Positions 9,415-55,075 of a stretch of 64,000 nt of DNA are shown piece by piece. Made by a program: the position numbers and the translations under genes. How positions within the stretch are numbered: position 1 is the first letter of the stretch; every line of letters starts with the position of its first letter. The notes beneath the pieces are model-generated. The model saw only the letters and a list, made by a program, of their open reading frames with translations, was not told where the DNA came from and searched no databases. The DNA comes from Clostridia bacterium (GTDB taxonomy: Bacteria; Bacillota; DAOUPZ01), in contig DAOUPZ010000004.1 in assembly GCA_030625885.1 (NCBI GenBank), positions 116,623 to 180,622 of the forward strand, in the 5' to 3' direction.

Positions 9415-9630
9415 TCAGTCACCCCTGTTTCTTATCCTATCACTTATATCCCCCAAAATTTTCCTGTAAAACCCTATTGACTGTGTGATTATTTCCTCAG
9501 TCGATTCCTTAACTACTATTTTTTTCCCTGTTGTGAGAGTAATCACTGTATCCGGTGTTGATTCAATCATCTCAATCAACTGAACATTAACGATTAATTG
9601 TTCACTATTAAAGCGCGTAACTTTTATCAT
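9415..9630 (-). CDS. flbD: Flagellar protein FlbD
   Basis: MIKVTRFNSEQLIVNVQLIEMIESTPDTVITLTTGKKIVVKES matches the FlbD family; sits between flgE and motA. Confidence 0.75.
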   Translation of the reverse strand: MIKVTRFNSEQLIVNVQLIEMIESTPDTVITLTTGKKIVVKESTEEIITQSIGFYRKILGDISDRIRNRGD

Positions 9631-9668
9631 GTGGCACCTCATTTTGCAGCTTCGCTGTAGCTCTTAGG

Positions 9669-9940
9669 TATTAGCAGTTAGAAGTTAGGTCTTTATATGT
9701 TTCCCTTCCATGCAATAAGGGGACACACCCCTCGTCCCTCACAGAATGTCCCCATTCTTGCATTAGGGTTTTTATTATTCCTAGTACTTCTTTGGTAGAA
9801 GGTTCAAGGTTGAAGGAAAATTCAAACCAATAATTACTCTTTTTCCTTCTACCTTCTACCTACGTCTTTTTATTCTTTATCTCTTTATCTTTTCCTACCT
9901 GCTACCTGCTGTTCACTACCTGCTAAAACAGCCTGCAGCT
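9669..9940. repeat. Intergenic word-repeat element (ttagcagttagaagttagg; ttctaccttctacctac; cctacctgctacctgctgttcactacctgct)
   Basis: 300 bp noncoding gap between flbD and flgE; the 31-mer cctacctgctacctgctgttcactacctgct (9895-9924) recurs identically at 45051-45081. Confidence 0.7.
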
Positions 9941-9948
9941 GTTCTAAT

Positions 9949-11343
9949 CTATCGCTTCAGATTAACCAATTCCTGCAACATTTCATCAGAAGCGCTGATA
10001 ATACGGGAATTAGCTTGAAAGCCACGCTGTGTTACGATCATGTCGGTGAATTCCTGTGATAAGTCGACATTGGACATTTCCAAAGTTCCAGATGAAACCG
10101 CTCCTCGTTTACCTGTTCCTGACGTACCAATGTTGGCTTCCCCAGAGTTATTTGATTCCTGGTACAGGTTCTGCCCATCTTTGATTAATCCCGACGGATT
10201 GGTAAAGTGAGCCATCCCAACCTGAGCCAGTGTCTGGGCCTCTCCGTTGGAATATACGCCCGTCAGAATACCACTACCATCTATCGCATATTTAACCAAT
10301 TCACCCATAGAACGTCCTGCATGCTTCCCTTCAATATCTCCTTTTCGACCAGTTACTGTGGATTCTTCAGATGCAAATTGGGTGAGATTGGATAAATCAA
10401 TCTCTATATCCATTTCATCTAAATTGGCAGGTGTATAGGCCACTGATATTTTCTGGAAATTTGTATTTATTTTACCTACATCATCTGTCGTTTGAAATGA
10501 AATTTGTTTATAATCCGCACTATCAATTTGGGTTTGTTCCCCATCAATTGTTATGGAAAGATTCCAGTTGTTTTCTCCAGGATCCTCCCAATCTGTTTGT
10601 ACTTTGTCATCATTCAATTCGGGTTTCCCATCTGCATCCCGCTTAACGGTTGCTTTAGAAAAAGAAACTTCCATTTGGTGCTTGACACCCATTTCATCAT
10701 AAAAGCTAACAGGAACGGTATATGAATATTGTGTTTTTTCGTCATCCCCATCCGTGTACCCATCTAAAGAATCCTTATCCACATATGAATCGGTAGGGGT
10801 TTTCATCATATTACCCGAAACAGTAACAGCCTCTGTTTTTAATGGCGCAATGATTTTATCTTTAGGTAGAATCTGAATGGCCCCCATATCTGCCGGCGAT
10901 GTACTATTAATGATACCATCTTGCGCTAACCAACCCTGCACCTTTAAGCCAGTACCCATGCTCACCAGGTTATCATTGGTATCAAAATCAAAATCACCTA
11001 CACGTGTATAGGAAGACGCCTCGCCTTCACCCAAAACAAAAAAACCATCTCCCTGAATAGCAAGATCCAGCATTCTGCCTGTTGGTTGTAAACTCCCACC
11101 CGTATGAACCACATTGATTGATCCAAGTTTTGTACCTAATCCAACTTGAACGGGGTTAGTGCCACCTCGTTCATCCTGAGCTGCTGACGCACCACTAATC
11201 GTCTCATTTAACATATCTTGAAACGTCACCTGACTTTTTTTAAAACCAATCGTATTCACATTTGCAATATTATTACCAATGACATCCATCTTTGTCTGAT
11301 TAATTCGTAATCCAGACACAGCGGAAAACATAGAACGCATCAT
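9949..11343 (-). CDS. flgE: Flagellar hook protein FlgE
   Basis: N-terminal MMRSMFSAVSGLRINQTKMDVIGNNIANVNTIGFK and C-terminal VNLKR flagellar rod/hook signature domains; 464 aa. Confidence 0.9.
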   Translation of the reverse strand: MMRSMFSAVSGLRINQTKMDVIGNNIANVNTIGFKKSQVTFQDMLNETISGASAAQDERGGTNPVQVGLGTKLGSINVVHTGGSLQPTGRMLDLAIQGDGFFVLGEGEASSYTRVGDFDFDTNDNLVSMGTGLKVQGWLAQDGIINSTSPADMGAIQILPKDKIIAPLKTEAVTVSGNMMKTPTDSYVDKDSLDGYTDGDDEKTQYSYTVPVSFYDEMGVKHQMEVSFSKATVKRDADGKPELNDDKVQTDWEDPGENNWNLSITIDGEQTQIDSADYKQISFQTTDDVGKINTNFQKISVAYTPANLDEMDIEIDLSNLTQFASEESTVTGRKGDIEGKHAGRSMGELVKYAIDGSGILTGVYSNGEAQTLAQVGMAHFTNPSGLIKDGQNLYQESNNSGEANIGTSGTGKRGAVSSGTLEMSNVDLSQEFTDMIVTQRGFQANSRIISASDEMLQELVNLKR

Positions 11344-11430
11344 AATAATGACCTCCTTGAGTTTTTAAGTTTTTAAGTTTATACCGCTTCTATCATTCCA
11401 CGGCTCGGGCTTCCTCACTAAGGTCCAGCC

Positions 11431-20023: not shown

Positions 20024-20183
20024 TCGTAAGACGCTCCTCAACTAATCTATATAGGTCTTCTTTGTAATGATCGTTATAGATAAACAAACAAAAAATTTTT
20101 TTGACACATAGGGACATACCACTCATACTTTGTGGGATGTCCCCTAATGTCTTGTTTTCCTTTAACATTCCTTCTTCTTTGAA

Positions 20184-20949: not shown

Positions 20950-21209
20950 CCCATTTCCTCCCTTGTTTACGTATTATATAATAAATGTTATTCTTTCTAG
21001 CTATAATGGCAATCGTTTTTACCTATAGAGAACGCATTAAATATTTTTCATAGATTATAATATTAGGGGAAAGTTGGTTAGTTGGAAAGTTGGAAGTAAA
21101 AGATTAAAGTTCATGGCATATATTTATTGCGTTTCATATAGTAATATTATTATCATTTTTCTTTTCTGTTTTACTATTTTAATTTTGAATTAATAATTAT
21201 GAATTATTG

Positions 21210-26072: not shown

Positions 26073-26089
26073 ATGCCTCTATAGTCTTA

Positions 26090-26266
26090 TCTTTTTCTTT
26101 TATTCTTTTATTCTTTAATCTTCATCTTTTATCTTTAAGCTTTAAGCCTTTAGCCTTCAGCCAATCTTATTATCTTTTTCTTCCCTTTATCCTTTGTCGT
26201 TCAGCGACCAAAGGAAGCGATCGTTCCTCGTTCAGCGAACGCAGAGAGCGATCTTCCCTCTATCTT
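26090..26266. repeat. Intergenic repeat element (tatcttttatctttaagctttaagcctttagccttcagcc + ttcagcga direct-repeat core)
   Basis: ~70-nt core cgttcagcgaccaaaggaagcgatcgttcctcgttcagcgaacgcagagagcgatcttccctct is ~90% identical to 60398-60465; a degenerate copy lies at 51860-51895. Confidence 0.7.
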
Positions 26267-37467: not shown

Positions 37468-37518
37468 GAAAAACGGCGATTCGCCATTTTTCAGCGGAAA
37501 GGGGAAAGGCGAAAAACA

Positions 37519-37556
37519 GTAAGCAGCAGGTAGATCTACCTGCTGCTTACTGTTTT
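37519..37556. terminator. Bidirectional rho-independent terminator
   Basis: Perfect 16-bp palindrome cagtaagcagcaggtag atc ctacctgctgcttactg followed by ttttttat; lies between convergent genes 37099-37467(+) and sleB(-). Confidence 0.6.
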
Positions 37557-37559
37557 TTA

Positions 37560-38462
37560 TCATCTTGCAAATACATGATTACCAATTCGTCTGACAACAG
37601 GTCGAGTATAAATCCAGGGTGTTTGAACACCTAATGGATTATAGAAATACAACGAGTCATAAGAAGGATCCCATCCAGCAATGGCTTCTTGTGCTGCTTT
37701 ATAAGCCGTTTGATTAGGTGCATAATTAATTTGTCCATTCATTACCGGTTCAAATTGCCACTTCTGATAGATCACGCCAGCAATCGTATTAGGAAATTGA
37801 GCGCTCTCCACACGATTCAACACCACAGCAGCAACAGCAACCTGTCCCTCATATATTTCTCCCCGCGCTTCACCATATACCAAATGTGCCAATAGATCTA
37901 TATCACGACGAGAATAATCACCACGTGAGCTTACTGGTGATACCCTGGGAACTGAACGTCGCATTTCATTTTTAGTTTTAGCACCGACCACCCCATCAAC
38001 TTCCAAACGGTGAATCTTCTGGTAATTTTTTACAGCTTGGAAAGTTTCTTGTCCAAACTTTCCATCAATCAAATTAATGTTGTATTTTAAATCTTTCAAA
38101 ACTTTTTGTAGTGCCGCAATATCAGCCCCTTGCGTTCCCAAAACAAGCTTACGATCATTATAAATTTCCTGATAATCAACAAAATCAAATACACCATCAA
38201 CATTAAGATGATGATTACCTTCAAACTGCGTGACTACCTGATGTGTCTGATCGCCATAAATTCCGTCTATAGTGCCTACATGATACTTTCTTTGTTGCAA
38301 TATATATTGCAACTGACTCACATCCGACCCCCTCATCCCCTTTTGCAACGTTCTGCTGCCTAAAACAGCCCCTTGTGCTTGAGCATAAGGTATAAATAGA
38401 ATCCATACAAAAACAAGAATGATAACAGCTAACGAGCTCTGTATCTTCGATATTTTCTTCAT
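37560..38462 (-). CDS. sleB: Spore cortex-lytic enzyme SleB-like (two PG-binding domains + hydrolase_2 domain)
   Basis: C-terminal LVYGEARGE...VAAVVLNRV...YQKWQFEPV hydrolase_2 signature and two peptidoglycan-binding repeats; start at ATG with GGGAGGGAGGAG RBS. Confidence 0.75.
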   Translation of the reverse strand: MKKISKIQSSLAVIILVFVWILFIPYAQAQGAVLGSRTLQKGMRGSDVSQLQYILQQRKYHVGTIDGIYGDQTHQVVTQFEGNHHLNVDGVFDFVDYQEIYNDRKLVLGTQGADIAALQKVLKDLKYNINLIDGKFGQETFQAVKNYQKIHRLEVDGVVGAKTKNEMRRSVPRVSPVSSRGDYSRRDIDLLAHLVYGEARGEIYEGQVAVAAVVLNRVESAQFPNTIAGVIYQKWQFEPVMNGQINYAPNQTAYKAAQEAIAGWDPSYDSLYFYNPLGVQTPWIYTRPVVRRIGNHVFAR

Positions 38463-41066: not shown

Positions 41067-41158
41067 TACACTCAGCTCCTTAATTAATTGATGTTATATG
41101 GTGAAAATCATAACATTTCTAGTCTTCCCTACCTCCTACCTGCTGCAGCCGCAGGCTG

Positions 41159-41797
41159 CTAAAATATCCTCGTTCCCAGTATAAACCACGATACCAAGTT
41201 CGCTAAAGGAAATAAGATGCGATCAATGATATTAAAGTAGATTAATACAATTAAAATTAAAAACCCATAACGTTCTATTTCTAAATAACGTAATCTTAAA
41301 TGAGCCGGCAGAAGACCTGCCAATATTTTTGATCCATCTAAGGGTGGAATAGGGATCATATTAAAAACGGCCAGTACAATATTGTATAAAATAACCATGA
41401 TCATAAACCTTGTAAGCCACGGATATTGATATAATACCATACTTAGCTTTTCACTAAAAGGTGCCAACCGCACAGGTAAAGCAAAAAGCGCAGCAACAAT
41501 CAAATTGGCCAAAGGACCGCCTATACTGGAAAGAACCATTCCTTTTTGAGGATTCTCAAAATTGCGGGGATTAATCGGTACCGGTTTGGCCCAGCCAAAT
41601 TTAAAAACCAGCAGCATAATGGCACCAATAGGATCTAAATGTTTTAACGGGTTGAGACTCAAACGACCCACCATCTTAGCCGTCGGATCACCCAGACGAT
41701 AAGCCACATACCCATGAGAAAATTCATGGATCGTAATAGCAATCAATAATGCGGGTATACTCGTCAATAATTCTGTCAAATCAGGTAAACTAATCAT
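41159..41797 (-). CDS. Site-2 protease family (M50) zinc metalloprotease
   Basis: HEFSH zinc-binding motif in a polytopic membrane protein with a downstream LDG-like motif. Confidence 0.7.
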   Translation of the reverse strand: MISLPDLTELLTSIPALLIAITIHEFSHGYVAYRLGDPTAKMVGRLSLNPLKHLDPIGAIMLLVFKFGWAKPVPINPRNFENPQKGMVLSSIGGPLANLIVAALFALPVRLAPFSEKLSMVLYQYPWLTRFMIMVILYNIVLAVFNMIPIPPLDGSKILAGLLPAHLRLRYLEIERYGFLILIVLIYFNIIDRILFPLANLVSWFILGTRIF

Positions 41798-41806: not shown

Positions 41807-44437
41807 TCATCCTCTCAATAACTTATGAGCTAATGCCATCTCTTCTTTTTTCGTTTTTACATGACCATCTAGCTTAGCTAATTTTATCTGCCATAAAACT
41901 TCTCGGAATTGCGGTCCCGGTTCAAAACCAGCACGAATTAAATCTCTTCCCGAAATCTCAGACTTAATAAACCGTAGATTGTTTATAAAAACCATCACTC
42001 GCGCTTTCAAACACGCGTTCCTACTTTTTACGATCAAAAAAGCCAACACTTCTAATGGTATATCATAAAACTCTTGATATAAATGGCTATTGGGTATCTT
42101 CTCTGTCTGACTCAGATAGACCCCTTTTTCCTGCCATATCTTAAAAGCCAATATCAATTTATCGCCAAGTTCTAGGGGAAGATGAAGGCGCTTCATATTT
42201 TCTCTTACTTCTTCATGCCCTATTTTATGGAGTAAAACCATAAGATAAAGCTGCCATACCCAAACCTTATCTTCCCCTAATTCTTCAATCAGCGTAGGTA
42301 ATAACTTTTCCAAATAATAAAGTGTTTCTAAAATTTCAAGATCTAGTTGTACAGAAGGAAAGAAAAATCCGAGAACATTCAGTTCTGACAAACGAATAAT
42401 GACTCGAGGTACATGGTTCTCTTTTAAAAGGCGTATCAATTCATCTCGAGCACGTTCCAATTTTAAATCACGGAGCACACCTGTATCTAAAGCACTTTTA
42501 ATATAATGAAGCGTTTGAGGCCCAATGGTAAACCCATATCGTTGTTCATACCTAACAGCACGGAAAATCCGCGTCGGATCCTCCACAAAACTTAAATTAT
42601 AAAGCACACGTATGATACCTTCTTTTAAATCTTTTATACCATTAAAAAAGTCCCACAATCGCCCAAAGTTGTCTTGACTCAATTCAATGGCCAGCGCATT
42701 AACTGTAAAATCACGTCGGTACAAGTCCTGTCTTAATTTGACTTCTCCTGCTTCTACCGTCGGCAAAGCTGCTGGATATTCATAGTATTCCTGACGGGCA
42801 CTGGCAATATCCAGCCGTAACCCACTTTGCAAAATGACCTTTGCTGTTTTAAAACGGTCGTAAACGCTCAAGGTTCCTTGAAAATGTTCAGCAACAAGGC
42901 GGGCAAATCGTTCTCCCTCTCCTTCAACCACAATATCGATATCCAGATTAGGTACACCCAGCAGCAAGTCACGTACAAATCCCCCGACAATATAGATTGA
43001 AAAACCATGTTGTGTCCCCAAATGACTCAAAGTAAGCAATAAGTCATATATTCCTTCAGGCAGCTCCGTTTGCATCTTTTCCTTCACATTTATATCTAGT
43101 TTATGAGTCCCCTCAGTAAAGGTTAATGATCGACGCTGTGAATAATTTGCACCATGCCACGTCTCCAAAACATTGGTCCGGGTCACGATACCTACAATTT
43201 TACCGTCTTCAATCACTGGCAGGCGCCCAATATCGCTATGCGTCATCAGACGCTGTATTTCTCCCAATGAAGTTGACGGTTTGATATAGACCACTTCTTT
43301 GGTCATAAAACCCTTTACAGGAGCATGTCCCAGGCCATGGTAAAGGGCTTTATCCATATCGCGCCGCGAAATAATGCCCACCAATTTACCATGATCCACA
43401 ACGGGTAATCCCGTATGTCCGTGACGCAATAATATCTTAAAAGCTTCTTCTATCGGGATATTCGATGGAACCGTCTTAACAGGGCATGACATGATTTGAC
43501 TGGCAACATATTCAGGTTTCACCTCTTTCTGAAGAACTTTACGAAGCTGAGCAACCACATCATCTAATCCTTGTTCACTATCTTTAAAACTGGCAGAGGC
43601 TGCTTTCTTGTGTCCCCCGCCGCCAAAACGTTCCATCACTTTCCCAACATCTACAGAATCAATTTTACTCCGTCCAATTAATTGGAAGCGTTCACCCATC
43701 TTCACAACAACCATCATCAAAGCCTCATTCTCAATTTCGCCTAAATGATAGGTCAAAAGGCTTAATCCCGGTACAAATTCCTCCGTCTCGGCTGTTGCCA
43801 GCAGAACATCCACTTCATTAATTGATATATTTTGTGCATCCTGTAATAGTTTGCTTAAAACTTGCTTTTGCATCATCGACAAGGGCCGATCCAGGAACTC
43901 GCCAACAATATCTAAGTTTGCACCTATTTCTAACAAGTAAGTCACCGCTGCTGCATCATGAACAGTTGTGGTGGGAAAAAGCAAATTACCCGTATCTTCA
44001 TAAATGCCGAGCATAAAAAGAGTGGCTTCTAAAGGCGTTATTCCCAAACCCTGCTTCCGGATCAAATTCACCAGCAACGTTGTGACTGCACCCACATTTT
44101 CTACAATAACAAAATCTCCGGAAATATCATCTGCCAAAACCGGATGGTGGTCATATACACATATCTGAATATCTTCTTTATCAAGAAGTGCCGCTATTTT
44201 ATCCAATCGATCTGGCGATTTAGTGTCTACTATTATAATCTTATGAACATCTTCTAGTAGAACCTGTGCTAATGGTTTAACATCAATCGTATCTTTATAA
44301 ATAGATAAAAAATCATGGACATTATGATTCACATGACCGCTAAAAACCAATTGTGCCTCAGGGTGGAGTTTCTGTGCTGCTACCATTGAAGCAAAACCAT
44401 CAAAATCTAGGTTAATATGGCTTGTAATAATCTCCAC
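41807..44437 (-). CDS. Multidomain DHH/DHHA1 + tandem CBS + poly(A) polymerase/CCA-adding nucleotidyltransferase protein
   Basis: N-terminal DHH phosphoesterase motif (INLDFDG), two CBS domains, and nucleotidyltransferase head IYIVGGFVRDLLLGVPNLDIDIVVEG. Confidence 0.75.
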   Translation of the reverse strand: MEIITSHINLDFDGFASMVAAQKLHPEAQLVFSGHVNHNVHDFLSIYKDTIDVKPLAQVLLEDVHKIIIVDTKSPDRLDKIAALLDKEDIQICVYDHHPVLADDISGDFVIVENVGAVTTLLVNLIRKQGLGITPLEATLFMLGIYEDTGNLLFPTTTVHDAAAVTYLLEIGANLDIVGEFLDRPLSMMQKQVLSKLLQDAQNISINEVDVLLATAETEEFVPGLSLLTYHLGEIENEALMMVVVKMGERFQLIGRSKIDSVDVGKVMERFGGGGHKKAASASFKDSEQGLDDVVAQLRKVLQKEVKPEYVASQIMSCPVKTVPSNIPIEEAFKILLRHGHTGLPVVDHGKLVGIISRRDMDKALYHGLGHAPVKGFMTKEVVYIKPSTSLGEIQRLMTHSDIGRLPVIEDGKIVGIVTRTNVLETWHGANYSQRRSLTFTEGTHKLDINVKEKMQTELPEGIYDLLLTLSHLGTQHGFSIYIVGGFVRDLLLGVPNLDIDIVVEGEGERFARLVAEHFQGTLSVYDRFKTAKVILQSGLRLDIASARQEYYEYPAALPTVEAGEVKLRQDLYRRDFTVNALAIELSQDNFGRLWDFFNGIKDLKEGIIRVLYNLSFVEDPTRIFRAVRYEQRYGFTIGPQTLHYIKSALDTGVLRDLKLERARDELIRLLKENHVPRVIIRLSELNVLGFFFPSVQLDLEILETLYYLEKLLPTLIEELGEDKVWVWQLYLMVLLHKIGHEEVRENMKRLHLPLELGDKLILAFKIWQEKGVYLSQTEKIPNSHLYQEFYDIPLEVLAFLIVKSRNACLKARVMVFINNLRFIKSEISGRDLIRAGFEPGPQFREVLWQIKLAKLDGHVKTKKEEMALAHKLLRG

Positions 44438-44550
44438 GGACGTCTCCCCCCAATAATAACTTACTTAACAAGATTAAAATGAACTGAGAATAGTAAAATT
44501 ATAACACAAAAAAATAATTGCTAAAAGAATTAGTCGTAATTTCAAAGGAT

Positions 44551-44590
44551 ATAACAAAAGCGCCTATTATCCTACTAATAGGCGCTTTTG
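44551..44590 (-). terminator. Perfect hairpin terminator overlapping 3' end of small ORF
   Basis: aaaagcgcctatta tcctac taataggcgctttt is a 14-bp perfect stem. Confidence 0.5.
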
Positions 44591-44722
44591 TTATATCCGT
44601 TTTTTGAACCCTCTGAAAAATACGCAATTTCTTCAGATGTTAAAATCTTAGTTGTTTCTTTCCCCGTATCCTTGTCATTACAAACACTTTGTTCGCTTTG
44701 CTTACTCTCATAACTCATAGAT
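44574..44722 (-). CDS. Small protein (47 aa) of unknown function, absent from the ORF track
   Basis: ATG with ideal AGGAGG RBS (6-nt spacer); TTGATA-16-TATAAT promoter-like sequence upstream; own terminator; translation MSYESKQSEQSVCNDKDTGKETTKILTSEEIAYFSEGSKNGYNKSAY. Confidence 0.35.
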
Positions 44723-45039
44723 ATAACGCCTCCTAAAGTTACTAATATCTCATAAAATTATATAATAAAACAACGAGATATCAACCTTATTATCGACAAA
44801 AATTTCTTGATTTTGTTATAATTATTATTGGTTTTCTACGGATATTGCAAAAAACCTCTTTATTTGTAGAAAACCAATAAAAAAAGACCCAAAGCACTAC
44901 ACCCTGGGCCTATCCTACTGCTTCTTTTATCTTTTCTTCTTTTATCTTTTCTTCTTTTACCGATCAGCTATTTAAATCTTCCATCATTTAAAACCCCAAC
45001 TTCATCATATAGAAGATCTCCATATCTTAATCCCTATCC

Positions 45040-45136
45040 TTAATCTTTTTCCTACCTGCTACCTGCTGTTCACTACCTGCTTCTTTTGTCTTTCATTCTT
45101 TTAAATGTAAACTGTCAATTGTCAACTGTCAACTGC
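45040..45136. repeat. Intergenic word-repeat element (cctacctgctacctgctgttcactacctgct; gtcaactgtcaattgtcaactgtcaactg)
   Basis: The 31-mer at 45051-45081 is identical to 9895-9924; a (gtcaact)n run follows; its reverse-complement word gacagttgacagt occurs at 63268-63290. Confidence 0.7.
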
Positions 45137-45892
45137 CTAAAACCCTTCCGCTTTTATTGCTGCTATAAATCGATTTGCGTTTGCCTTCTTTCTACAGGTT
45201 TCGCATTTTTTAATGTCAATATCATCTCCAAGCTTTTGGTATAGATAGGCTATTTCCTCTTCAGTCGCAAAATATTTTCCACACGCTTTGCATTGAACCA
45301 TTTTAAATGTTTTGCCCCAAATGGCCCGTGTTCCATTCTCCTCTAAATATTCAATCGCATTCGTCGGACAAACAGATGCGCAGGCACCACACCCAATACA
45401 AGGCTCAGACGGTTCGTCAAAAGGTGTACCCACTTTCTTTGCCGCCCCTCTAAAAACAGTATAAATCGCATTCGTCCCCATTGTCTCACAGGCCTTCACA
45501 CAAAGTCCGCATAACGTACATTTGTTTTCAGTATCCACTTTGCATCTATTAAACTCACGTACATCCTGTTGTTCCATCAGTTTCCTGATCATTTCACTAT
45601 TAGGCGCCATGGTATAATATAATTTTAGCAAGGTTTTTCTAATACGACGCAGTTTTTCATTATCCGTTACCACTTCTATTTCGCTTTGAATGGGATACGA
45701 ACAGGAAGCAACCCGTTTTGTAACGCCATTTTCAACAATTTCCACCATGCACAAGCGACAGGTTGCCAGACCGGGCAGCGCTTCAGAGTGACACAAAGTA
45801 GGAATATAAACATCATTTCGTTTGGCTGCTTCCAAAATGGTTTCACCATATTGTGCCTCTACCTTTTTCCCATCAATAATGATTTCCATCAT
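45137..45892 (-). CDS. NuoG/HndD-N-terminal-like iron-sulfur subunit ([2Fe-2S] + [4Fe-4S] clusters, C-terminal CxxC..CxxC), copy A
   Basis: 2Fe-2S ferredoxin motif CHSEALPGLATCRLCMVEI...C; His/Cys cluster CKVDTENKCTLCGLCVKAC; CIGCGACASVCP; no catalytic domain. Confidence 0.75.
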   Translation of the reverse strand: MMEIIIDGKKVEAQYGETILEAAKRNDVYIPTLCHSEALPGLATCRLCMVEIVENGVTKRVASCSYPIQSEIEVVTDNEKLRRIRKTLLKLYYTMAPNSEMIRKLMEQQDVREFNRCKVDTENKCTLCGLCVKACETMGTNAIYTVFRGAAKKVGTPFDEPSEPCIGCGACASVCPTNAIEYLEENGTRAIWGKTFKMVQCKACGKYFATEEEIAYLYQKLGDDIDIKKCETCRKKANANRFIAAIKAEGF

Positions 45893-45903
45893 GCTTCCCC
45901 CTT

Positions 45904-47742
45904 TTATTTCACTCTAACCGCATGAAACTGACAGTTATCCATACAAATACCGCATTTTGTACATTTTCCCTGATCTATAACGTGAAGTTGTTTTTTATCC
46001 CCTGAAATAGCGCCTACAGGACAACGCTTGGCACATACCGCACAACCCACACAAATCTTGGAATCAATATAGAACGCCGTCAAATCCTTACAAACCCCAG
46101 CCGGGCACCTCTTATTCTTAATATGTTCTTCAAATTCTACTCTAAAGTTTGCAATATTCGAAAGAACCGGATTGGGTGCTGATTTACCCAAAGCACAAAG
46201 GGAAGCTTCTTGAACCATTTGCCCAATTTCTACTAACAAATCAATATCGCCTTCTTGGCCTCTGCCTTCACAAATATCGGTCAAGATTTCCAACATCGTT
46301 TTAATCCCCTGCCGACAGGGCACACATTTCCCACAAGATTCTTCTGAGAGAAATTTCAAATAATACCGGGCAAATTCGACCATACAGGTCCGGTCATCAA
46401 CCACAATCATCCCACCCGAACCCATCATAGAACCTTCAGCAGTCAACGAATCAAAATCTACGGGTAAATCCAGCTTAGCTTCCGGAATACAGCCGCCGGA
46501 AGGACCGCCTGTCTGCACAGCCTTAAACTTTCGCCCCTTCGGAATTCCGCCGCCAATCTCAAAAATAATCTCCCGCAAAGTCGTCCCCATCGGTACTTCA
46601 ACTAAACCCGTATTATTGACCTTACCAACCAGCGCAAATACCTTGGTCCCGGGACTGTTTTCTGTCCCAATACTTCGAAAATAATCGGCACCCTTGTTAA
46701 TAATCACGGGTACATTTGTCCAAGTTTCGACATTGTTAATGACAGTAGGCTTCCCCCATAAACCCTTATCTGCAGGATAAGGCGGTTTAGGCACCGGTTC
46801 ACCAGTATTCCCCTCTATTGACCGTATCAGCGACATTTCCTCACCACAAACAAAGGCGCCGCCCCCTCTAACAATTTCAACATCAAACGAAAAGCCCGTA
46901 CCCAAAATATGTTCCCCTAAGAATCCCCTTTCACGCGCAGCAACAATCGCTCGCTTCATATTTTCCACGGCTAATCCATATTCATCACGAATATACAGGA
47001 ACCCATGATCGACCCCTATCGCATAACCACAGATGACCATTCCTTCCAATACCGCGTGTCCATCTCCCTCCAATACCGCTCGGTCCATAAACGCACCCGG
47101 GTCTCCTTCATCACCGTTGCAAATAACATATTTACATGTCCCTTCTGCTTGAGCCGCAAAAGACCATTTCAAACCGGTAGGAAATCCGCCGCCCCCTCTG
47201 CCGCGCAATCCTGATTTCTTGACTTCCTCAATAACTTCTGACCGCGTCATATCTTTTAATGCTTTTTCCAAAGCTTTGTAACCATCTCGCTCCAGATACT
47301 CGTCAATCTTACCCGGATCAATCAAACCTACATGACGCAAGGCAACTTTTTTCTGTTTACGATAGAATGTCCACTCATCGCGTTTAACCAGCTTCTTCTT
47401 TTGAATCTTATCCGTATATAATAACCGTTCTACCACTTCGCCCTTTAGAACAGTTTTTTCTATGATTTCCGATACATCTTCTACTTTCACTTTTATATAC
47501 GTGATATCATGAGGCAGAATGGTAACTAGCGGTCCATGCTCACAAAGGCCGTGGCAGCCTGTTGCTTTAATAGCAGGTGATGATTCTTTATCGCACTCAC
47601 ATTCAACCGTCATCGCCACTTCAACATTTAAGTAGCTTCCAGCTATATGCTTTTTAAAAGCTTCATAAACTTGCATGCTGTTATTTGCGATACAACCCGG
47701 ACCACAACAAACTAAAATCGTTAATCGTTTGCTACTTTGCAT
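45904..47742 (-). CDS. NuoF/HndC-like NAD(H)-binding flavoprotein subunit (N-terminal thioredoxin-like 2Fe-2S, FMN/NADH site, C-terminal 2x[4Fe-4S]), copy A
   Basis: GLRGRGGGGFPTGLKWSF NADH/FMN motif; N-terminal CCGPGC...C; C-terminal CVGCAVCAKRCP and CTKCGICMDNC ferredoxin motifs. Confidence 0.85.
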   Translation of the reverse strand: MQSSKRLTILVCCGPGCIANNSMQVYEAFKKHIAGSYLNVEVAMTVECECDKESSPAIKATGCHGLCEHGPLVTILPHDITYIKVKVEDVSEIIEKTVLKGEVVERLLYTDKIQKKKLVKRDEWTFYRKQKKVALRHVGLIDPGKIDEYLERDGYKALEKALKDMTRSEVIEEVKKSGLRGRGGGGFPTGLKWSFAAQAEGTCKYVICNGDEGDPGAFMDRAVLEGDGHAVLEGMVICGYAIGVDHGFLYIRDEYGLAVENMKRAIVAARERGFLGEHILGTGFSFDVEIVRGGGAFVCGEEMSLIRSIEGNTGEPVPKPPYPADKGLWGKPTVINNVETWTNVPVIINKGADYFRSIGTENSPGTKVFALVGKVNNTGLVEVPMGTTLREIIFEIGGGIPKGRKFKAVQTGGPSGGCIPEAKLDLPVDFDSLTAEGSMMGSGGMIVVDDRTCMVEFARYYLKFLSEESCGKCVPCRQGIKTMLEILTDICEGRGQEGDIDLLVEIGQMVQEASLCALGKSAPNPVLSNIANFRVEFEEHIKNKRCPAGVCKDLTAFYIDSKICVGCAVCAKRCPVGAISGDKKQLHVIDQGKCTKCGICMDNCQFHAVRVK

Positions 47743-48220
47743 CGACCATCCCTCCCTCTCTATATGATTCTAGAACCGCTCTTAATTTAGCAGGTGTCAA
47801 TTTCCCATAATACGATTCATTAATCATCATTACGGGGGCCAACGCACAGGAACCAATACAGTTAACAATTTCTAGAGAAAACTTTCCATCTGCAGTAGTC
47901 TGACCAGGATCAATCCCCAAAACGGCTTTAATCTCCGTAATTAAATTCATAGAACCTTTAATATGACAGGCTGTACCATCACAAACTTTAATAATATTTT
48001 CCCCCTTGGGTGTTAAACTAAAGGCTTTATAGAAAGTAACCACGCCATATACTTTAGTTAAAGGAACATCAAGATACTCACTTACCACTTCCAAGGATTG
48101 TTTGGGCAAATACTTGTATTTCCTTTGGATATCCTGCAATACGGCTAACAAAAAACGGGGTTCAGGCTTGTAAGTAGAAGCAACAACTAATGTTTCCTGT
48201 TTAATTTGTGATAAATCCAT
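47732..48220 (-). CDS. NuoE/HndA-like [2Fe-2S] thioredoxin-fold subunit, copy A
   Basis: CDGTACHIKGS...CIGSCALAP 2Fe-2S motif of the 24-kDa subunit family; start at MDLSQIK with GAGGGAGG RBS. Confidence 0.8.
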   Translation of the reverse strand: MDLSQIKQETLVVASTYKPEPRFLLAVLQDIQRKYKYLPKQSLEVVSEYLDVPLTKVYGVVTFYKAFSLTPKGENIIKVCDGTACHIKGSMNLITEIKAVLGIDPGQTTADGKFSLEIVNCIGSCALAPVMMINESYYGKLTPAKLRAVLESYREGGMVDAK

Positions 48221-48244
48221 CCTCTCAACCTCCCTCATTCATTT

Positions 48245-48400
48245 GGGTAAGTGGTAAGTAGGAAAAAGGTAAGTAAAAAATATAAAAAGCTAATAATTTT
48301 CAAAATAATAAAACTGTATAAGCTAACACTTTGTATATTATAAAAAATGTAAAAATAGACCGGCTTATTACATACCACTTACCACTTACCACTTACCTTA
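48245..48400. repeat. Intergenic word-repeat element (ggtaagtggtaagtaggaaaaaggtaagtaaaaa ... ccacttaccacttaccacttacc)
   Basis: Opposite-orientation copies of the (cttacca)n word flank an AT-rich segment between the AOR and NuoE-like genes of copy A; the same word occurs at 54985-55000 in copy B. Confidence 0.65.
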
Positions 48401-48423
48401 TTTTATGCTTTCTATAAATTAAG

Positions 48424-48455
48424 AAAAAGGAGAAGGAGCTCAGCTCCTTCTCCTT
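48424..48455 (-). terminator. Rho-independent terminator-like hairpin between AOR and NuoE-like genes, copy A
   Basis: ggagaaggagctgagctccttctcc perfect palindrome followed on the minus strand by ttttcttaatttat, 45 nt after the AOR stop. Confidence 0.55.
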
Positions 48456-48498
48456 TTCCCACTTTACTTATAAGCAGCTAATTTATCTTAACTTTTCA

Positions 48499-50361
48499 TT
48501 AATTATTCTTAGCTGAAGCCGCTTCTACAGCCCCTAGCATTTGTGCAAAAGCATCCTCTAAACCAAGCTCGACCATCTTATCTTTAGTGGGAACACCCGC
48601 TTGATCCCAACCTCGAAGTTGATAATATTCAGGAAGCATTTCATGTAAGCGGTTAACGCTGCCTTTATAGGAACCATTTTTTTGCGGCTCTTGCAAAAGT
48701 CTCTGTGGCAATGTATCGTCTTTACTTGTAAAGCCACACGCCATGTTAAATAACCGTTCTAAATTCCAAATTCTTTCCCCCGCTTTGAGTAATTCATCTG
48801 GACTATATTCAATACCCGTTGCTGCCGATACAACATTAGCAATAATATCAGCGCCAATTGCAAACGTTGTAAATAAACAGAAACCCGAAGCATCTACTGC
48901 GCCAGTCAAATCCTGGAATGCTTTACAGACACCTGCTTTTCCTTCTGTTACTGCCGGATCTAACTTCACGGGAATACCCAAAATTTCCGGAGCTGTCATA
49001 TACCCGCGCACATGGCAGCCACCACGATTATTGGTAGCATAATTTAAACCCATTCCCTGAAGTGTTCTGGGTTCATAAGCGGGCAATTCCTGTTTCTTAA
49101 CACTCATGGATAATTCCGGATGACCGTATTTCTCCGCTAAGCGATAAGAACCTTCCGCCAGTATATCACCAATATCTTCCCGGTAAGCCGTCTTAGTTAC
49201 CAAATCAGCTAAGATGCTCGCATTGCCAAACCTTAAATCACATCCGGCATCTTCGTTCGGCAGATAGCCGTTTTCATAAAGCTCCATGGCACAGGCTATC
49301 GTACAAGGCATGGAAATCGCATCCAATCCCAACTCATTGCAACGGAAGTTGGCTTGGCAAATCGCATCAATATCCTTGACACCACAGTCCGCACCAAAAC
49401 CCCAGCCTGCTTCATATTCGGGACCTTCTCCAAATCCTGCATATGGCTTGAATGTTCTGGTTACCCGACCACAACGCATCACACAGGAAAAGCAGCCTTT
49501 ATTACGCACCAAATTCTTATGTTCAATCATAAATTCACCACTGGTTTTATCTGCCCATTCTACCGTACCGGAATCACGGAAGTTACGTACCGGCAACCCA
49601 CCAGACTGATCTAAAATATTAATTAAAATTTGCGTACCATAAGTTGCTAAACCTGTACCCGTAACAGGATGTTCTAACAAAGCTTTTCGTGCTTCTTGGA
49701 TCGCTGCCATAAATTTTTCCCCATCAGGAACATGAACGGGATTCGTACCACGTACAACAATTCCCTTTAAATTTTTAGAACCCATAACCGCACCAACCCC
49801 AGTACGACCCGCTGCCCGATTCATTTCATTCATAATACAAGCTATTTTAGAAAGATTTTCCCCCCCAGGGCCAATACAAGCTACTTTAGCCATCTCATCC
49901 GTTTCTTCTTTTAACAGATCTGTTGTATCAGGTACTTCTTTGCCCCAGATATGATCTGCCGGACGAATTTCTACCTTGTCATTATTAATCCAGATATACA
50001 CTGGTTTTTCTGCTTTTCCTTCAATAACAACCACATCATAACCCGCATATTTCATTTCACTGCCAAAATACCCGCCGGAATTGGAACAAGCAATGGTCCC
50101 CGTAAGTGGTCCCCGCGTAATCACCATATATCGCCCGGCAGAAGGTGCCATGGTGCCTGTAAGCGGTCCTGTCACTAAATACATATTATTATCAGGACTT
50201 AAAGGATCGACGTTAGGACCTACTTCTTCGCAATACATTTTCGTCCCAAGTCCACGACCCCCAATAAAATCTTTCGCATATTTGGTATTTAATGGTTCCA
50301 TACTCGCTGTACCATTTGTCAAATTAACCCTTAAAATCTTATTTTGGTAGCTGCTCATCAT
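48499..50361 (-). CDS. Tungsten-type aldehyde:ferredoxin oxidoreductase (AOR family catalytic subunit), copy A
   Basis: 620 aa; AOR N-terminal domain (KILRVNLTNG...YIGGRGLG), pterin/[4Fe-4S]-binding region, C-terminal AOR domains; ~95% identical to copy B. Confidence 0.9.
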   Translation of the reverse strand: MMSSYQNKILRVNLTNGTASMEPLNTKYAKDFIGGRGLGTKMYCEEVGPNVDPLSPDNNMYLVTGPLTGTMAPSAGRYMVITRGPLTGTIACSNSGGYFGSEMKYAGYDVVVIEGKAEKPVYIWINNDKVEIRPADHIWGKEVPDTTDLLKEETDEMAKVACIGPGGENLSKIACIMNEMNRAAGRTGVGAVMGSKNLKGIVVRGTNPVHVPDGEKFMAAIQEARKALLEHPVTGTGLATYGTQILINILDQSGGLPVRNFRDSGTVEWADKTSGEFMIEHKNLVRNKGCFSCVMRCGRVTRTFKPYAGFGEGPEYEAGWGFGADCGVKDIDAICQANFRCNELGLDAISMPCTIACAMELYENGYLPNEDAGCDLRFGNASILADLVTKTAYREDIGDILAEGSYRLAEKYGHPELSMSVKKQELPAYEPRTLQGMGLNYATNNRGGCHVRGYMTAPEILGIPVKLDPAVTEGKAGVCKAFQDLTGAVDASGFCLFTTFAIGADIIANVVSAATGIEYSPDELLKAGERIWNLERLFNMACGFTSKDDTLPQRLLQEPQKNGSYKGSVNRLHEMLPEYYQLRGWDQAGVPTKDKMVELGLEDAFAQMLGAVEAASAKNN

Positions 50362-50364
50362 TGC

Positions 50365-50844
50365 TTATTCCACCTCCTCAAATATTTTTTTGAATTTTTC
50401 GGCATACATCGCTTTCTTAGTCAGCATACCTTTGTCCGCTTCCTTATATTCAATTGCCTCATTGGGGCAGAATTTAACACATTCCGGATCGCCGCCGCAC
50501 AAATCACATTTAATAACGCTTTTTGTTTCACTATCGTAGCTCGCATTACCAAATGGACAGGCACTGATACATAATTTACAACCAATACATTTATCTTTAT
50601 CCCATAAAACACCATTTGCTTCTTCATCACGATGCAGCGCACCTGTCATACAAACTTCGACGCAAGGGGCATCATCACAATGCATACACATCAACGGAAC
50701 ACCTAATCCTAAACGCTCCCAGACTAAAGCATGTACTCTCGACTTATTGGGATTAAATACGCCTTCATGTGCAAAGGAACAAGCGAGCTCACAATTACGA
50801 CAGCTTGCACACTTGCTTGGCTGAACCATTAAAATTTTCGCCAT
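50365..50844 (-). CDS. Polyferredoxin-like 4x[4Fe-4S] electron-transfer subunit (AorA-like), copy A
   Basis: Four CxxCxxCxxxCP-type motifs in 160 aa; stop overlaps the AOR start (translational coupling). Confidence 0.8.
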   Translation of the reverse strand: MAKILMVQPSKCASCRNCELACSFAHEGVFNPNKSRVHALVWERLGLGVPLMCMHCDDAPCVEVCMTGALHRDEEANGVLWDKDKCIGCKLCISACPFGNASYDSETKSVIKCDLCGGDPECVKFCPNEAIEYKEADKGMLTKKAMYAEKFKKIFEEVE

Positions 50845-50853
50845 CACTTCCCC

Positions 50854-51062
50854 GCTTCAATTTGATATTGAAGCAGGTTCCACCTCCTCGTATTATTATT
50901 TATCACCCTACAATGAAGCGCCTTCCTTTTCACCTCCTCAATTATTATTTATTTCAATGCTCCTTTGCACACTGGCAGGTATAAGAATTACTCCTTATGC
51001 CCTATCGCCCTGAATTCCCCCGTTCTTCTTGTGGAACTTCCAGGGTCGGAGATATGATTGCT
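50854..51062 (-). promoter_or_regulatory. Conserved 5' leader of ferredoxin-AOR unit, copy A (hairpin abutting RBS, two GAGGAGGTG motifs, ~100-nt conserved block)
   Basis: gcttcaat ttga tattgaagc hairpin at 50854-50874; the block at 50955-51060 is ~80% identical to 57578-57670 upstream of copy B. Confidence 0.45.
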
Positions 51063-51465
51063 TATACTTATATCATTTCAGACAATCATATATCATAAAT
51101 ATATGAAACTATTTCCTTTATATATACCTCTATTAAGGTGTTTTTAGAATACAATGATTCCCTTAGTTTTTATACGCTATATGATGGCATTAAAGTTTTA
51201 CATTTAGAATTGCCCCATCTTTCCTTCGCTTTTCCTGCAAACCTGCAATGTAAATTCTTGATTGCATGATATGTAGTCGTTTGATAATATCAAATGTTAT
51301 TTATTTATATTTAGTTCAGTTTCATTATATTCCTATCCATTTTATTGTACAAATTCCTCGTATTGTAATTTATATCTATAATATGGATTATAACGCATTT
51401 ATTTAATATTAACTGTTTACACCCTTTACTTTCGCGCTTTATCAATATCTTCCATAAGGAAAATA

Positions 51466-51495: not shown

Positions 51496-51774
51496 CTACC
51501 CTCCTGCTACAACAGGGAAAATAGATACTTGATCACTTGCTTGTAATTTTGTATGAATGCCATCTAAATGGGCAACATGCCGCCCATTTACCAATACAAT
51601 GATGAGATTATTCAAATCATCCTCAGTCTCATTAAACACCGCTTCTCTAAATTTCTTCCCATAATGCTGTGAAAGTTGCTGTAATAATGCCTGCAAATCA
51701 TCCGCTGGATCATTCCAGGTTGTTTCCTTTTCTCGGGTAAAATCACGGATATAAGCAAAATATTTAATATTCAT
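51496..51774 (-). CDS. MoaD/ThiS-family small sulfur-carrier-like protein (C-terminal Gly-Gly)
   Basis: 92 aa ending ...SIFPVVAGG; beta-grasp-sized; last gene of Nuo-like unit of copy B; absent from copy A. Confidence 0.5.
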   Translation of the reverse strand: MNIKYFAYIRDFTREKETTWNDPADDLQALLQQLSQHYGKKFREAVFNETEDDLNNLIIVLVNGRHVAHLDGIHTKLQASDQVSIFPVVAGG

Positions 51775-51789
51775 AAGTTCCCTCCCTTT

Positions 51790-51850
51790 TTTCAGCTCTT
51801 AGCAGTTAGCTTTTTCTTTTCCTAACTGCTAACTCCTAACTCCTAACTGC
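51790..51850. repeat. Intergenic word-repeat hairpin (ttagcagttagc...cctaactgctaactcctaactcctaactgc)
   Basis: agcagttag / ctaactgct inverted repeat plus (taactcc)n; same words as 9669-9692 in opposite orientation. Confidence 0.65.
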
Positions 51851-51902
51851 TTCTTTTTTCTTCACTCTTCCAGCAACTAAAGGGAGCGTTCTTTACTCTC
51901 TC

Positions 51903-52673
51903 TCAAATATCCAATTCTGCCTTTAACGCTTCCTTAAATTTTGCCGCATTCCCCTTTTGCTTACACTTTTCACACAATGCCATATCCATATCATTACCAA
52001 TCTTTTGCTTGACATAAGCAATTTCTTGTGCTGTAGCAAAATATTTACCGCATTCCTTACATTGAATCAATTCAAAGGTTTTATCCCAAATGGTTCTTAC
52101 CCCATTTTCTTGAGTCATTTGAATGGCTTCTGTTGGACAAACTGAAGCACATGCTCCGCACCCAATACAAGAATCAGAGGGTTCATCAAAAGGTGTGCCT
52201 ACTTTCTTTTCCGCCCCTCTAAATACAGTAGAAATGGCATTTGTACCCATTTCTTCACAAGCTTTTACGCATAGTCCACACAATACACAATTTTCTGCCA
52301 AATGTGTTTCCCCTTTATTAACCTGCAAGCGTTTTATTTCCGGTACATCATACTTTTCTTTTAACGCCTTAATATCTTTATTATGAGGGACACGCGCACT
52401 ATATAAATTGAGCAGCACATTTCTTGTTCTTCGTATGGTCTCATTATCAGTGGTAACTTCCATACCTTCATGAACAGGATAAGCACAAGATGCCACCCGC
52501 TTGGTCACACCGTTTTCTTTTACTTCCACCATACAAATCCGGCAGCTTGTAATGCCGGGTAATGCATCCGAATAACATAACGTCGGGATATCAATACCAT
52601 TGCGACGTGCTGCTTGTAAAATCGTTTCACCTTCTTGTACTGCTGCCTTTTTCCCATCAATGATAATTTCCAT
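51903..52673 (-). CDS. NuoG/HndD-N-terminal-like iron-sulfur subunit, copy B
   Basis: Same cysteine architecture as 45137-45892 (CYSDALPGITSCRICMVEV; CVLCGLCVKAC; CIGCGACASVCP; CKECGKY...CEKCKQK) at ~55-60% identity. Confidence 0.75.
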   Translation of the reverse strand: MEIIIDGKKAAVQEGETILQAARRNGIDIPTLCYSDALPGITSCRICMVEVKENGVTKRVASCAYPVHEGMEVTTDNETIRRTRNVLLNLYSARVPHNKDIKALKEKYDVPEIKRLQVNKGETHLAENCVLCGLCVKACEEMGTNAISTVFRGAEKKVGTPFDEPSDSCIGCGACASVCPTEAIQMTQENGVRTIWDKTFELIQCKECGKYFATAQEIAYVKQKIGNDMDMALCEKCKQKGNAAKFKEALKAELDI

Positions 52674-52687
52674 AATCTCCCCTCCTT

Positions 52688-54484: not shown

Positions 54485-54959
54485 GGTTCTCCCCTCCTCT
54501 ATAACGATTGATAATTTCTCTCAATGAAGCTGGTGTTAAATTACCATGATATTCATCATTAATTACAACAACGGGTGCTAATCCACAAGCGCCCACACAA
54601 CCAACGGTTTCTAATGAAAATTTACCATCTTCGCTCGTCTCACCCGGCTCTATTCCAAGAATATCTTTTACTTCTTGTATCAAATTCATAGAACCTTTAA
54701 CATGACAGGCTGTGCCGTCGCATACTTTAATAATATTCTCACCTTTGGGTTTTAAACTTAACGCTTTATAAAAAGTAGCAACACTATAAACTTTTGTCAG
54801 TTCCACCCCAACATACTCCGCAACAATCACCAAAGATTCTTTAGGTAAATAATTATATTTTCTTTGCACATCCTGTAGTATGGCTAATATGAATCGCCGT
54901 TCAGGCTTGTAACTAGAAGCAATCGCCAACGTTTCCTGTTTAACCTGTGATAAATCCAT
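54474..54959 (-). CDS. NuoE/HndA-like [2Fe-2S] subunit, copy B
   Basis: CDGTACHVKGS...CVGACGLAP; ~85% identical to copy A. Confidence 0.8.
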   Translation of the reverse strand: MDLSQVKQETLAIASSYKPERRFILAILQDVQRKYNYLPKESLVIVAEYVGVELTKVYSVATFYKALSLKPKGENIIKVCDGTACHVKGSMNLIQEVKDILGIEPGETSEDGKFSLETVGCVGACGLAPVVVINDEYHGNLTPASLREIINRYRGGENHGK

Positions 54960-55036: not shown

Positions 55037-55075
55037 CACTTTACTTATAAGCAGCTAATTTATCTCAACTTCTCA

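Follow-up and report, generated by a model that had tools for sequence, protein, structure and literature searches.

What are the short tandem words that fill the spacer between flgE and flbD (positions 9669-9940) in a 64-kb window of DNA from a Clostridia bacterium (contig DAOUPZ010000004.1), and why do they recur in other spacers of the same window? An earlier note had read them as one genome-wide family resembling repetitive extragenic palindromic (REP) sequences or miniature inverted-repeat transposable elements (MITEs). The analysis presented here, based on the 64-kb window together with 15 kb from a single close relative (contigs L036 and L040), gives a different answer: the feature is a mosaic of heptanucleotide simple-sequence arrays, at least two small MITE-like modules and composite blocks copied between unlinked loci. 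The single-family claim fails since the tandem-word arrays have neither target duplications nor defined ends and turn over at the level of individual units.

The arrays were located by Tandem Repeats Finder (TRF) together with a perfect-repeat search. Counting perfect repeats of at least 2 units, with the expectation derived from 100 dinucleotide shuffles, the 8.6 kb of intergenic DNA contain 14 tandem duplications of period 7, compared to 1.1 expected (maximum 4 in 100 shuffles), 4 of period 8 (0.4 expected) and 13 of period 6 (3.6 expected). No enrichment of period-7 duplications was found in the 55 kb of coding DNA (7 versus 4.7 expected). With a stricter score, 10 period-7 arrays are retained, all of them intergenic and none coding, and periods 5, 6 and 8-11 give 0-3. 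The word CAGGTAG occurs 15 times, 11 of these within the non-coding 12.5% of the window, and the 18-mer CCTACCTGCTACCTGCTG is present in three exact copies and one copy with a single mismatch, with no occurrence in 100 shuffles. All nine sites listed previously carry the tandem words described for them, and these words are non-random, restricted to non-coding DNA and recurrent at unlinked loci, sometimes in an inverted arrangement that gives hairpins. Further sites are found at 11360-11380, 20056-20180, 20950-21209, 44921-44959 and 63310-63352. The heptamer period itself, which had been called unusual, has precedent: Mrazek 2007 documented an excess of heptameric repeats in the intergenic DNA of bacteria, as that work is summarised in PMC4679880 and PMC4692102.

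Nearly all genes of the window (GC content 38%, GC skew strongly negative) lie on the minus strand, and on this sense strand the arrays start 0-100 nt past stop codons. The distance between stop codon and array is 23 nt at flgE, 2 nt at flgB, 13 nt at the M50 peptidase and IclR genes and 1 nt at hoxU1, the first of two genes encoding HoxU-like proteins, and at topA the element starts on the stop codon itself. Arrays are present in all three convergent spacers and in none of the three divergent (5'-5') spacers, and none resides in promoter or riboswitch leaders. The proposed location mostly just 3' of genes is thus borne out; the proposed concentration at operon boundaries is not, since many array sites are intra-operon spacers. 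The sense strand is purine-rich in 11 of 12 strict arrays. Within long arrays the units are graded, as in the topA-trmFO spacer (GGCTGAA GGCTAAA GGCTTAAA GCTTAAA GATAAAA GATGAA GATTAAA), which fits local duplication plus mutation. Stop codons in all three frames were also considered as the cause of the arrays and set aside; a sense-strand stop is found in 9 of 10 distinct words and an antisense stop in 5 of 10, a bias confounded with purine richness.

In the flgE-flbD spacer several such components stand side by side. Behind the flgE stop codon, a CAGGTAG heptamer array (9890-9926, minus strand) with the order AGCAGGTAG-TGAACAG-CAGGTAG-CAGGTAGG-AAAA represents a recurrent unit, designated element B. 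It is followed by a period-8 array of the TAAAGAGA type (9865-9890, minus strand, 3.4 units), detected by both TRF and the perfect-repeat search, and by a hairpin formed from inverted heptamer arrays (9794-9863, minus strand), in which GGTAGAAGGTTCAAGGTTGAAGG (9794-9816) opposes CCTTCTACCTTCTACCTAC (9845-9863). The hairpin module M2, GGGGACAC...ATGTCCCC, occupies 9708-9768 on the plus strand and possesses the extended stem CCATGCAATAAGGGGACA / TGTCCCCATTCTTGCATTAGGG. At the far end, an array in inverted orientation, TAGCAGT TAGAAGT TAGG (9672-9689, plus strand), pairs at 14 of 17 positions with the CAGGTAG array at 9894-9911, and the predicted fold closes the whole spacer into a branched structure. 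The terminator scan detected no canonical terminator in the region 9600-10000. A separate period-8 array, TAAAAACT x2.6 (11360-11380, minus strand), is situated 17 nt upstream of the flgE start.

Element B follows the general form CAGCAGGTAG(C/G)AGGTAGG-(G)AAAAGA (CAGCAGGTAGCAGGTAGGAAAAGA) and is found at five sites, at every one in sense orientation. At 9894, 41128, 45051 and 60470 it follows a stop codon at a distance of 13-55 nt; a variant lies at 51820, and the element additionally fills both arms of a palindrome between convergent genes. The site at 41128-41159 (minus strand), directly after the stop of the peptidase M50 gene, carries the variant CAGCAGGTAGGAGGTAGG, with the short hairpin GCAGCCTGCGGCTGC in front of it. 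The flgE and hoxU1 sites, although unlinked, are identical over 35 nt (9890-9924 and 45047-45081); the identity previously given for a 31-mer at 9895-9924 and 45051-45081 is therefore real, and only its length has to be extended.

A second composite block, element A, measures about 135 nt, consists of a 2 x 31-nt core and an AAGCTNA-type array, and is common to the topA-trmFO spacer and the region after an iclR-like gene. The topA-trmFO spacer (26073-26266, minus strand) harbors a degenerate array with 11 units, each 6-8 nt long (26090-26162), and the 2 x 31-nt core (26197-26257), and its homology to 60336-60469 starts at the topA stop codon. The composite after the iclR-like gene (60243-60487, minus strand) comprises element B (60466-60487), the 2 x 31-nt core (60398-60465), the AAGCTNA-type array (60336-60380) and, at 60243-60323, a remnant of M2 broken up by AATTATG/AATTGTG words. 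The cores at 26200-26266 and 60401-60467 share 89.6% identity over 67 nt, in agreement with the reported core of about 70 nt and about 90% identity, with the correction that the internal direct repeat has a period of 31 and not 32. For neither A nor B could a target duplication or clear ends be found. A reading as a single RNA structure was rejected for 26073-26266 and 60320-60500 on the basis of fold z-scores near -1. None of the elements has a match in Rfam 15, whether judged by the gathering threshold or by E <= 1.

Some of the sites share a common history. The regions 45137-50847 and 51903-57422 are tandem paralogous copies of one operon of about 6.6 kb, encoding aldehyde:ferredoxin oxidoreductase-like (AOR), NuoE/NuoF-like and HoxU-like proteins, with a DNA identity of 63-92%. 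Because they occupy equivalent positions in the duplicated operon, the sites at 45040 and 51790 and those at 48245 and 54985 are not independent, and two pairs among the nine supposedly separate sites are explained by segmental duplication. In copy 1, the 3' untranslated region (UTR) of hoxU1 (44915-45135, minus strand) consists almost wholly of arrays, namely CAGTTGA x4 (45106-45135), element B (45047-45081) and AAAAGATAAAAGAAG x2.6 (44921-44959), which together fill the 225 nt separating the stop codon from the true terminator (44885-44911). In copy 2, the spacer between hoxU2 and moaD holds a GAGTTAG/CAGTTAG array (51820-51848) within the segment 51797-51850 (minus strand), which is the paralogous slot of 45047-45092 (78% identity) and contains a perfect 11-bp hairpin of TTAGCAGTTAG (51798-51808) with CTAACTGCTAA (51821-51831). 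Between the paralogous slots, the same C-to-A change is found in several units in register (CTACCTG versus CTAACTG). With 35 identical nt, the flgE and hoxU1 sites resemble each other more closely than these slots do (78%), indicating that the 35-nt block moved or was converted after the operon duplication.

The second pair of slots is built from GGTAAGT words. Inverted arrays at 48246-48259 (plus strand) and 48373-48397 (minus strand) form the base of a long hairpin round 110 nt of AT-rich DNA (48245-48399), and the segment 48269-48422, bracketed by GAAAAAGG direct repeats, is missing from the paralogue. The paralogue of 48246-48259 is a GGTAAGT x2.4 array (54983-54999, plus strand), which abuts and lengthens the terminator hairpin at 54999-55037.

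Several observations concern the same operons. The small MoaD/ThiS-like open reading frame (ORF) ending in GG (51498-51776, minus strand) is present only in copy 2; the corresponding slot of copy 1 (44912-45136) holds heptamer arrays. In the predicted fold of 51777-51902 (minus strand), GAACGCUCCCUUU from the 5' part of the hoxU2-moaD spacer is paired with AAAGGGAGGG, the ribosome-binding site of moaD, which could reflect translational coupling, occlusion or chance. The copy-1 leader (50944-51063, minus strand) matches the molybdenum cofactor (Moco)/tungsten riboswitch RF01055 at 35.5 bits (gathering score 36), and the copy-2 leader (57547-57666, minus strand) is 76% identical to it over 123 nt. 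In both copies the AOR operon is probably preceded by a tungsten/molybdenum-cofactor riboswitch.

True mobility can be assigned to one component of the mosaic. M2 is a 35-nt imperfect palindrome hairpin, GGGGACAY-ACCMCTCRT...-ATGTCCCC, with copies at 9719-9753 and 20111-20144, a remnant at 60243-60262 and a further copy in the flgB-flgC spacer of the relative (L036:5117-5152). One uncultured relative, from Logan sample SRR14270296, shows 91% identity, and M2 occupies different spacers and orientations in the two genomes. In the fliE-fliF spacer of the window (20056-20180, minus strand), M2 is part of a 109-nt MITE-like foldback insertion (20064-20172), which is flanked by an 8-bp direct repeat with a AAAAGAAGA-type target, AAAGAAGA (20056-20063 and 20173-20180). 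Contig L040 of the relative has a single AAAGAAGA in a 42-nt spacer, and in a more distant relative of 70% identity the spacer measures about 40 nt as well. The single target in the relative and the short outgroup spacer identify this as an insertion with an 8-bp target duplication, absent from both the 91% and the 70% relative; the comparison with sister genomes which had been suggested as a check on mobility thus yields a positive case. The insertion folds end to end (z = -3.2), in line with a multi-copy foldback MITE, and does not contain any heptamer array. With regard to REP/REPIN elements, which are imperfect palindromes of 20-40 nt occurring in inverted doublets, no doublets of M2 were seen, the window lacks a RAYT gene, and the three copies are without covariation. 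The M2 hairpin gave no match in metagenome scans, and the 20-mer core gave three matches there, on unrelated contigs with a GC content of 53-59%, taken as chance.

The second module, M1 (TATAATCTATGAAAAATATTTAATGCGTTCT), forms an inverted pair in the flgB-flgC spacer (20950-21209, minus strand), at 21105-21141 (plus strand) and 21023-21059 (minus strand). This spacer also contains a degenerate AATTNNN array (21180-21207) and a period-8 array (21068-21095). M1 is identical at 31 of 31 positions to L036:1-31, which is located upstream of trmFO in the relative and hence at another locus. No transposase or RAYT gene is encoded in the 64-kb window, and a plasmid BLAST search with two of the elements gave no match.

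Where the relatives can be aligned, the spacer content changes rapidly. The window contains topA-trmFO-hslVU-codY, a block conserved in Firmicutes, with the flagellar operon (flgB ... flgE-flbD-motAB ...) behind it, as well as redox operons of anaerobes for aldehyde:ferredoxin oxidoreductase and for NuoE/F-like and HoxU-like proteins. The identity of TrmFO to named Desulfotomaculia/Peptococcaceae-like proteins does not exceed 71%. In the window, the topA-trmFO, flgB-flgC and fliE-fliF spacers measure 194 nt, 260 nt and about 160 nt, respectively. In the 70% relative, topA and trmFO overlap by 8 nt, flgB and flgC are 4 nt apart and fliE and fliF 40 nt; the filler is therefore lineage-specific. 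Variation of the units was compared at three loci, namely the flgB-flgC and pre-flgE spacers against the 91% relative and the paralogous operon slots against each other, and the orthologous arrays differ in both unit number and sequence. After flgB, the window reads AATTCAT AATTATT AATTCAA AATTAAA and the 91% relative AATTAAT AATTGAA AATTGAA AATTTAA AATTAAG. Within flgB-flgC the relative has M2 and additional arrays where the content of the window differs, and before flgE the TAAAAACT array is imperfect in the relative. A homologue search with FlgE, aimed at the relative's flgE-flbD spacer, returned nothing closer than 51%. Contigs L036 and L040 can be joined via a 28-nt overlap inside M2, which is read as pointing to assembly breakage at these repeats. 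A further insertion/deletion polymorphism is seen behind the codY terminator, where the relative has about 90 extra nt with the hairpin ACTTAGACATCACTATGTCTAAGT (L036:4195-4290) that are missing in the window.

Do the words act as hairpins? RNA folding gives strong z-scores for 9643-9948 (-6.4), 48239-48498 (-7.3), 51777-51902 (-4.9) and 37490-37575 (-7.4), and weak ones for 26073-26266 (-1.2), 60320-60500 (-1.1), 45000-45136 (-0.25), 41067-41158 (+1.1) and 20950-21209 (+1.3). In the flgE-flbD region, the hairpin at 9794-9863 is present in both the minimum free energy and the centroid fold. Hairpins occur only where arrays of one word stand inverted, and many arrays are single-oriented and unstructured, so that the label of a hairpin-forming family applies to about four of nine sites, which fold well because of the words, and not to the others.

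The most regular structure is a perfect palindrome between convergent genes (37512-37557), with 23+23 nt in its arms, AAAAACAGTAAGCAGCAGGTAGA / TCTACCTGCTGCTTACTGTTTTT, which are built from the CAGCAGGTAG word. Its position had been given correctly; its extent, noted as 16 bp, is larger. The palindrome looks like a bidirectional terminator and fits an intrinsic terminator by eye, but it was not flagged by a simple terminator scan. At 63276-63352 (plus strand), a weak CAGTTGA array (63276-63289) follows a terminator and is itself followed by a second terminator hairpin (63310-63352), the stem of which is the GGTAAGT word (ACCACTTACCC / GGGTAAGTGGT) and which likewise fits a terminator by eye.

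The Rfam matches in the window consist of one tRNA, the near-threshold Moco riboswitch and spurious hairpin matches. A near-perfect 26-bp hairpin at 44544-44601, behind a possible ORF of about 40 codons (44600-44715, minus strand), gave a weak and probably spurious match to the plastid psbA 3' UTR model. A gene at 41807-44437 (minus strand) encodes an 876-aa A-adding tRNA nucleotidyltransferase fused with DHH/CBS-type domains.

Beyond the relatives, the 18-mer has 35 single matches among 185,579 species genomes, all in unrelated taxa, and none in a viral scan. The matched loci (WOR-3, Chloroflexi, Nostocaceae and a metagenome-assembled genome (MAG) of Clostridia) also hold heptamer arrays, some with the same words and some inverted, and such arrays in unrelated phyla show that the phenomenon is widespread. 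In the WOR-3 MAG (GC content 61%), a 140-nt GAGTTAG/CAGGTAG/CAGTTAG array (L003:5792-5931) lies 380 nt from reverse-complement words (L003:6311-6344); the words are the same as those of the window, in a very distant phylum. Similar arrays are present in L006, L020 and L035 (Chloroflexi) and L028 (Nostocaceae), the latter including the CTACCTG x2 word of the window. The uncultured Clostridia MAG has a tandem repeat of 124 nt that is itself composed of heptamer words (CATTTTC, AATTGAG) and a GC hairpin (L004:1-311), and CAGCAGGTAGCAGGTAGG follows a terminator ahead of a GGGACG...CGTCCC hairpin (L004:1478-1535).

Among known systems, the heptameric simple-sequence repeats of bacterial intergenic DNA (the LSSR of Mrazek et al. 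2007), with the heptamers of Xanthomonas and Nostoc, are close in character. The GGGAATC and GGGGA(T/C)T repeats of Xanthomonas and Nostoc are intergenic, sometimes inverted into stem-loops and strongly variable between close relatives (PMC4692102). Shared with them are the intergenic period-7 excess, arrays of 2-6 units, occasional inverted stem-loops and the retention of position while length and sequence vary, and a slippage origin has been proposed. The window differs in its low-GC anaerobic Firmicute host, in purine- and AT-rich words that do not form G-quadruplexes, in the many words found side by side and in the interleaving of arrays with small inserted modules. TAACTGA direct repeats are known from marine Beggiatoaceae, cyanobacteria and some Bacteroidetes (MacGregor 2015, PMC4679880). 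They too are intergenic, present in 2-6 copies and provide stops in all three frames in forward orientation, and TAACTGC, TAACTCC and TAACTTC of the window are akin to them. However, that system has one dominant word just upstream of start codons, over the ribosome-binding site, whereas the window has many words, chiefly just downstream of stop codons. The short tandemly repeated repetitive (STRR) heptamers are cited for Calothrix in PMC4692102. They resemble the window in having several heptamer words in tandem in non-coding DNA at many loci, and differ in phylum and in array length, the arrays here being short, with 2-5 perfect units. STRR heptamers were reportedly described in heterocystous cyanobacteria by Mazel et al. 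in 1990.

The modules recall MITEs, bacterial interspersed mosaic elements (BIMEs), REP and REPIN sequences (PMC3116915), the BOX elements of pneumococci, Correia elements and cyanobacterial dispersed repeats: all are multi-copy foldback elements of 35-150 nt with a modular or nested organisation, they are extragenic and often 3' of genes, and for M2 presence/absence polymorphism and target duplication are found as well. They differ from these families in lacking an associated transposase or RAYT within the window and recognisable sequence similarity to described families, and the arrays have neither ends nor target duplications. The small dispersed repeats of cyanobacteria are said to have been treated by Elhai in 2008. 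Integron attC, CRISPR, Chi/KOPS/SRS and primase sites were weighed and dropped, since their motifs do not fit. In the literature, no paper describing such arrays in Clostridia was found.

Taken together, the reading we favor, at slightly better than even confidence, is that slippage-built arrays accumulate in unconstrained spacers and are spread by small non-autonomous insertions or gene conversion. Replication slippage or unequal exchange would generate and replace units of 7 nt, sometimes 6 or 8, in situ, in DNA free of coding or promoter constraint, mainly the first 0-100 nt after stops, in 3' UTRs and intra-operon spacers. Polymerase slippage favoring 7 nt was conjectured by Mrazek 2007, according to the summaries in PMC4679880 and PMC4692102. 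A purine asymmetry is general in Firmicutes, and the purine richness of the arrays on the transcribed, leading strand would be in line with it. Modules (M2, the M1 pair, elements A and B) would insert into spacers or be copied between them, thereby bringing arrays to new loci, and two arrays of the same word landing inverted would give long hairpins, some of which may serve or be tolerated as terminators or RNA stabilisers. Most copies are presumably neutral, any effect on transcripts is putative, and a terminator or stabiliser role is best read as incidental. Several points weigh against this reading. Slippage alone explains neither the 35-nt identity at unlinked loci nor the constant sense orientation of element B after stops (4-5 sites); for A and B neither target duplications nor clear ends were found, and the window encodes no transposase; only the published conjecture accounts for a preference for 7 nt; and the close relative was compared over 15 kb of one genome.

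The mobile component could be given more weight. If everything belonged to one or a few MITE/REP-like families, the arrays would be their terminal inverted repeats, the transposase would act in trans from elsewhere and growth in place would be minor. The true insertion with its 8-bp target duplication and foldback ends, the second candidate insertion flanked by GAAAAAGG, the inverted arrays which bracket 9672-9926 and 48246-48397 like terminal inverted repeats, the M1 inverted pair, the recurrence of the same composite blocks at unlinked loci and the contig break within a module in the relative all point in this direction. Yet the polymorphic M2 insertion is devoid of heptamer arrays, A and B are bounded neither by target duplications nor by defined ends, and many arrays are single-oriented and unstructured. 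Moreover, the words vary by site while the period stays 7, individual units of the arrays have changed at positions that are fixed between orthologues and between paralogues, and neither a transposase in the window nor a match in the plasmid collection was found; this explanation is considered rather unlikely. Mobility might instead have left the units themselves, as footprints of repeated transposon insertion and excision with a 7-8-bp target duplication remaining from each cycle. Such an origin has been discussed before (PMC4679880, section 9), insertion in this genome does generate 8-bp target duplications, and there are arrays of period 8. The dominant period, however, is 7 and not 8, arrays reach 4-11 units with graded divergence, and excision leaving tandem footprints is not usual in bacteria (PMC4679880, section 9), which makes this origin very improbable.

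Selection for function would offer another account, in which the arrays, especially element B (CAGCAGGUAG(C/G)AGGUAGG-AAAAGA), are mRNA cis-elements tuning stability, termination or translation of flanking genes. Candidate binders are a HutP-type protein recognizing (UAG-N4)x3 or an S1/Csp/CsrA-like factor, with Shine-Dalgarno mimicry as a further candidate. HutP sites on RNA comprise two sets of three UAG triplets, with 4 nt between triplets. In the window, UAG is repeated every 7 nt at 51822-51848, with four occurrences, and at 9894-9926; other arrays are without UAG, and no HutP gene or hut operon is present in the window. The constant sense orientation of element B after stops and its presence in both palindrome arms, AGGAG or GGAGGT inside several words, and the same words in arrays of distant phyla would suit such a role, and for Nostoc and Beggiatoaceae regulatory effects of heptamer repeats have been suggested or, in part, demonstrated (bioRxiv 10.1101/2022.06.06.494920; PMC4679880). 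On the other hand, the words are too heterogeneous (UAG-, UGA- and UAA-containing, AATT-type, AAG-type) for any single binder, the 91% relative and the window show rapid turnover, and the associated genes are unrelated (flgE, topA, M50 peptidase, IclR-type regulator, HoxU-like). Purine asymmetry alone explains the orientation, and no candidate binding protein was seen in the window, leaving such a regulatory function unlikely. A further proposal is that (C/G)AG(G/T)TAG-type arrays are made or maintained by a sequence-specific, cross-phylum mechanism, either a factor acting on 3' UTRs through UAG/GTAG at 7-nt spacing or a very small mobile unit. The occurrence of the same words in Clostridia, WOR-3, Chloroflexi, Nostocaceae and Thioploca, in arrays that are sometimes inverted, points to it, as do the sense arrays right after stops and the one 35-nt copy recently moved between unlinked loci; we nevertheless regard it as quite improbable.

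If slippage-built arrays spread by small modules are indeed the correct description, the little-studied heptamer-repeat phenomenon, so far known from cyanobacteria, Xanthomonas, Beggiatoaceae and Bacteroidetes, would reach an anaerobic Firmicute lineage. Essential and usually compact operons such as topA-trmFO and the flagellar operon would then absorb hundreds of bases of fast-evolving filler and stay undisrupted. Arrays and modules are practical markers for strain typing and a likely cause of assembly breaks, and the lineage, together with its 91% relative and the turnover between them, would provide a usable comparative system for the 7-nt period and for the recurrence of the same words across phyla.

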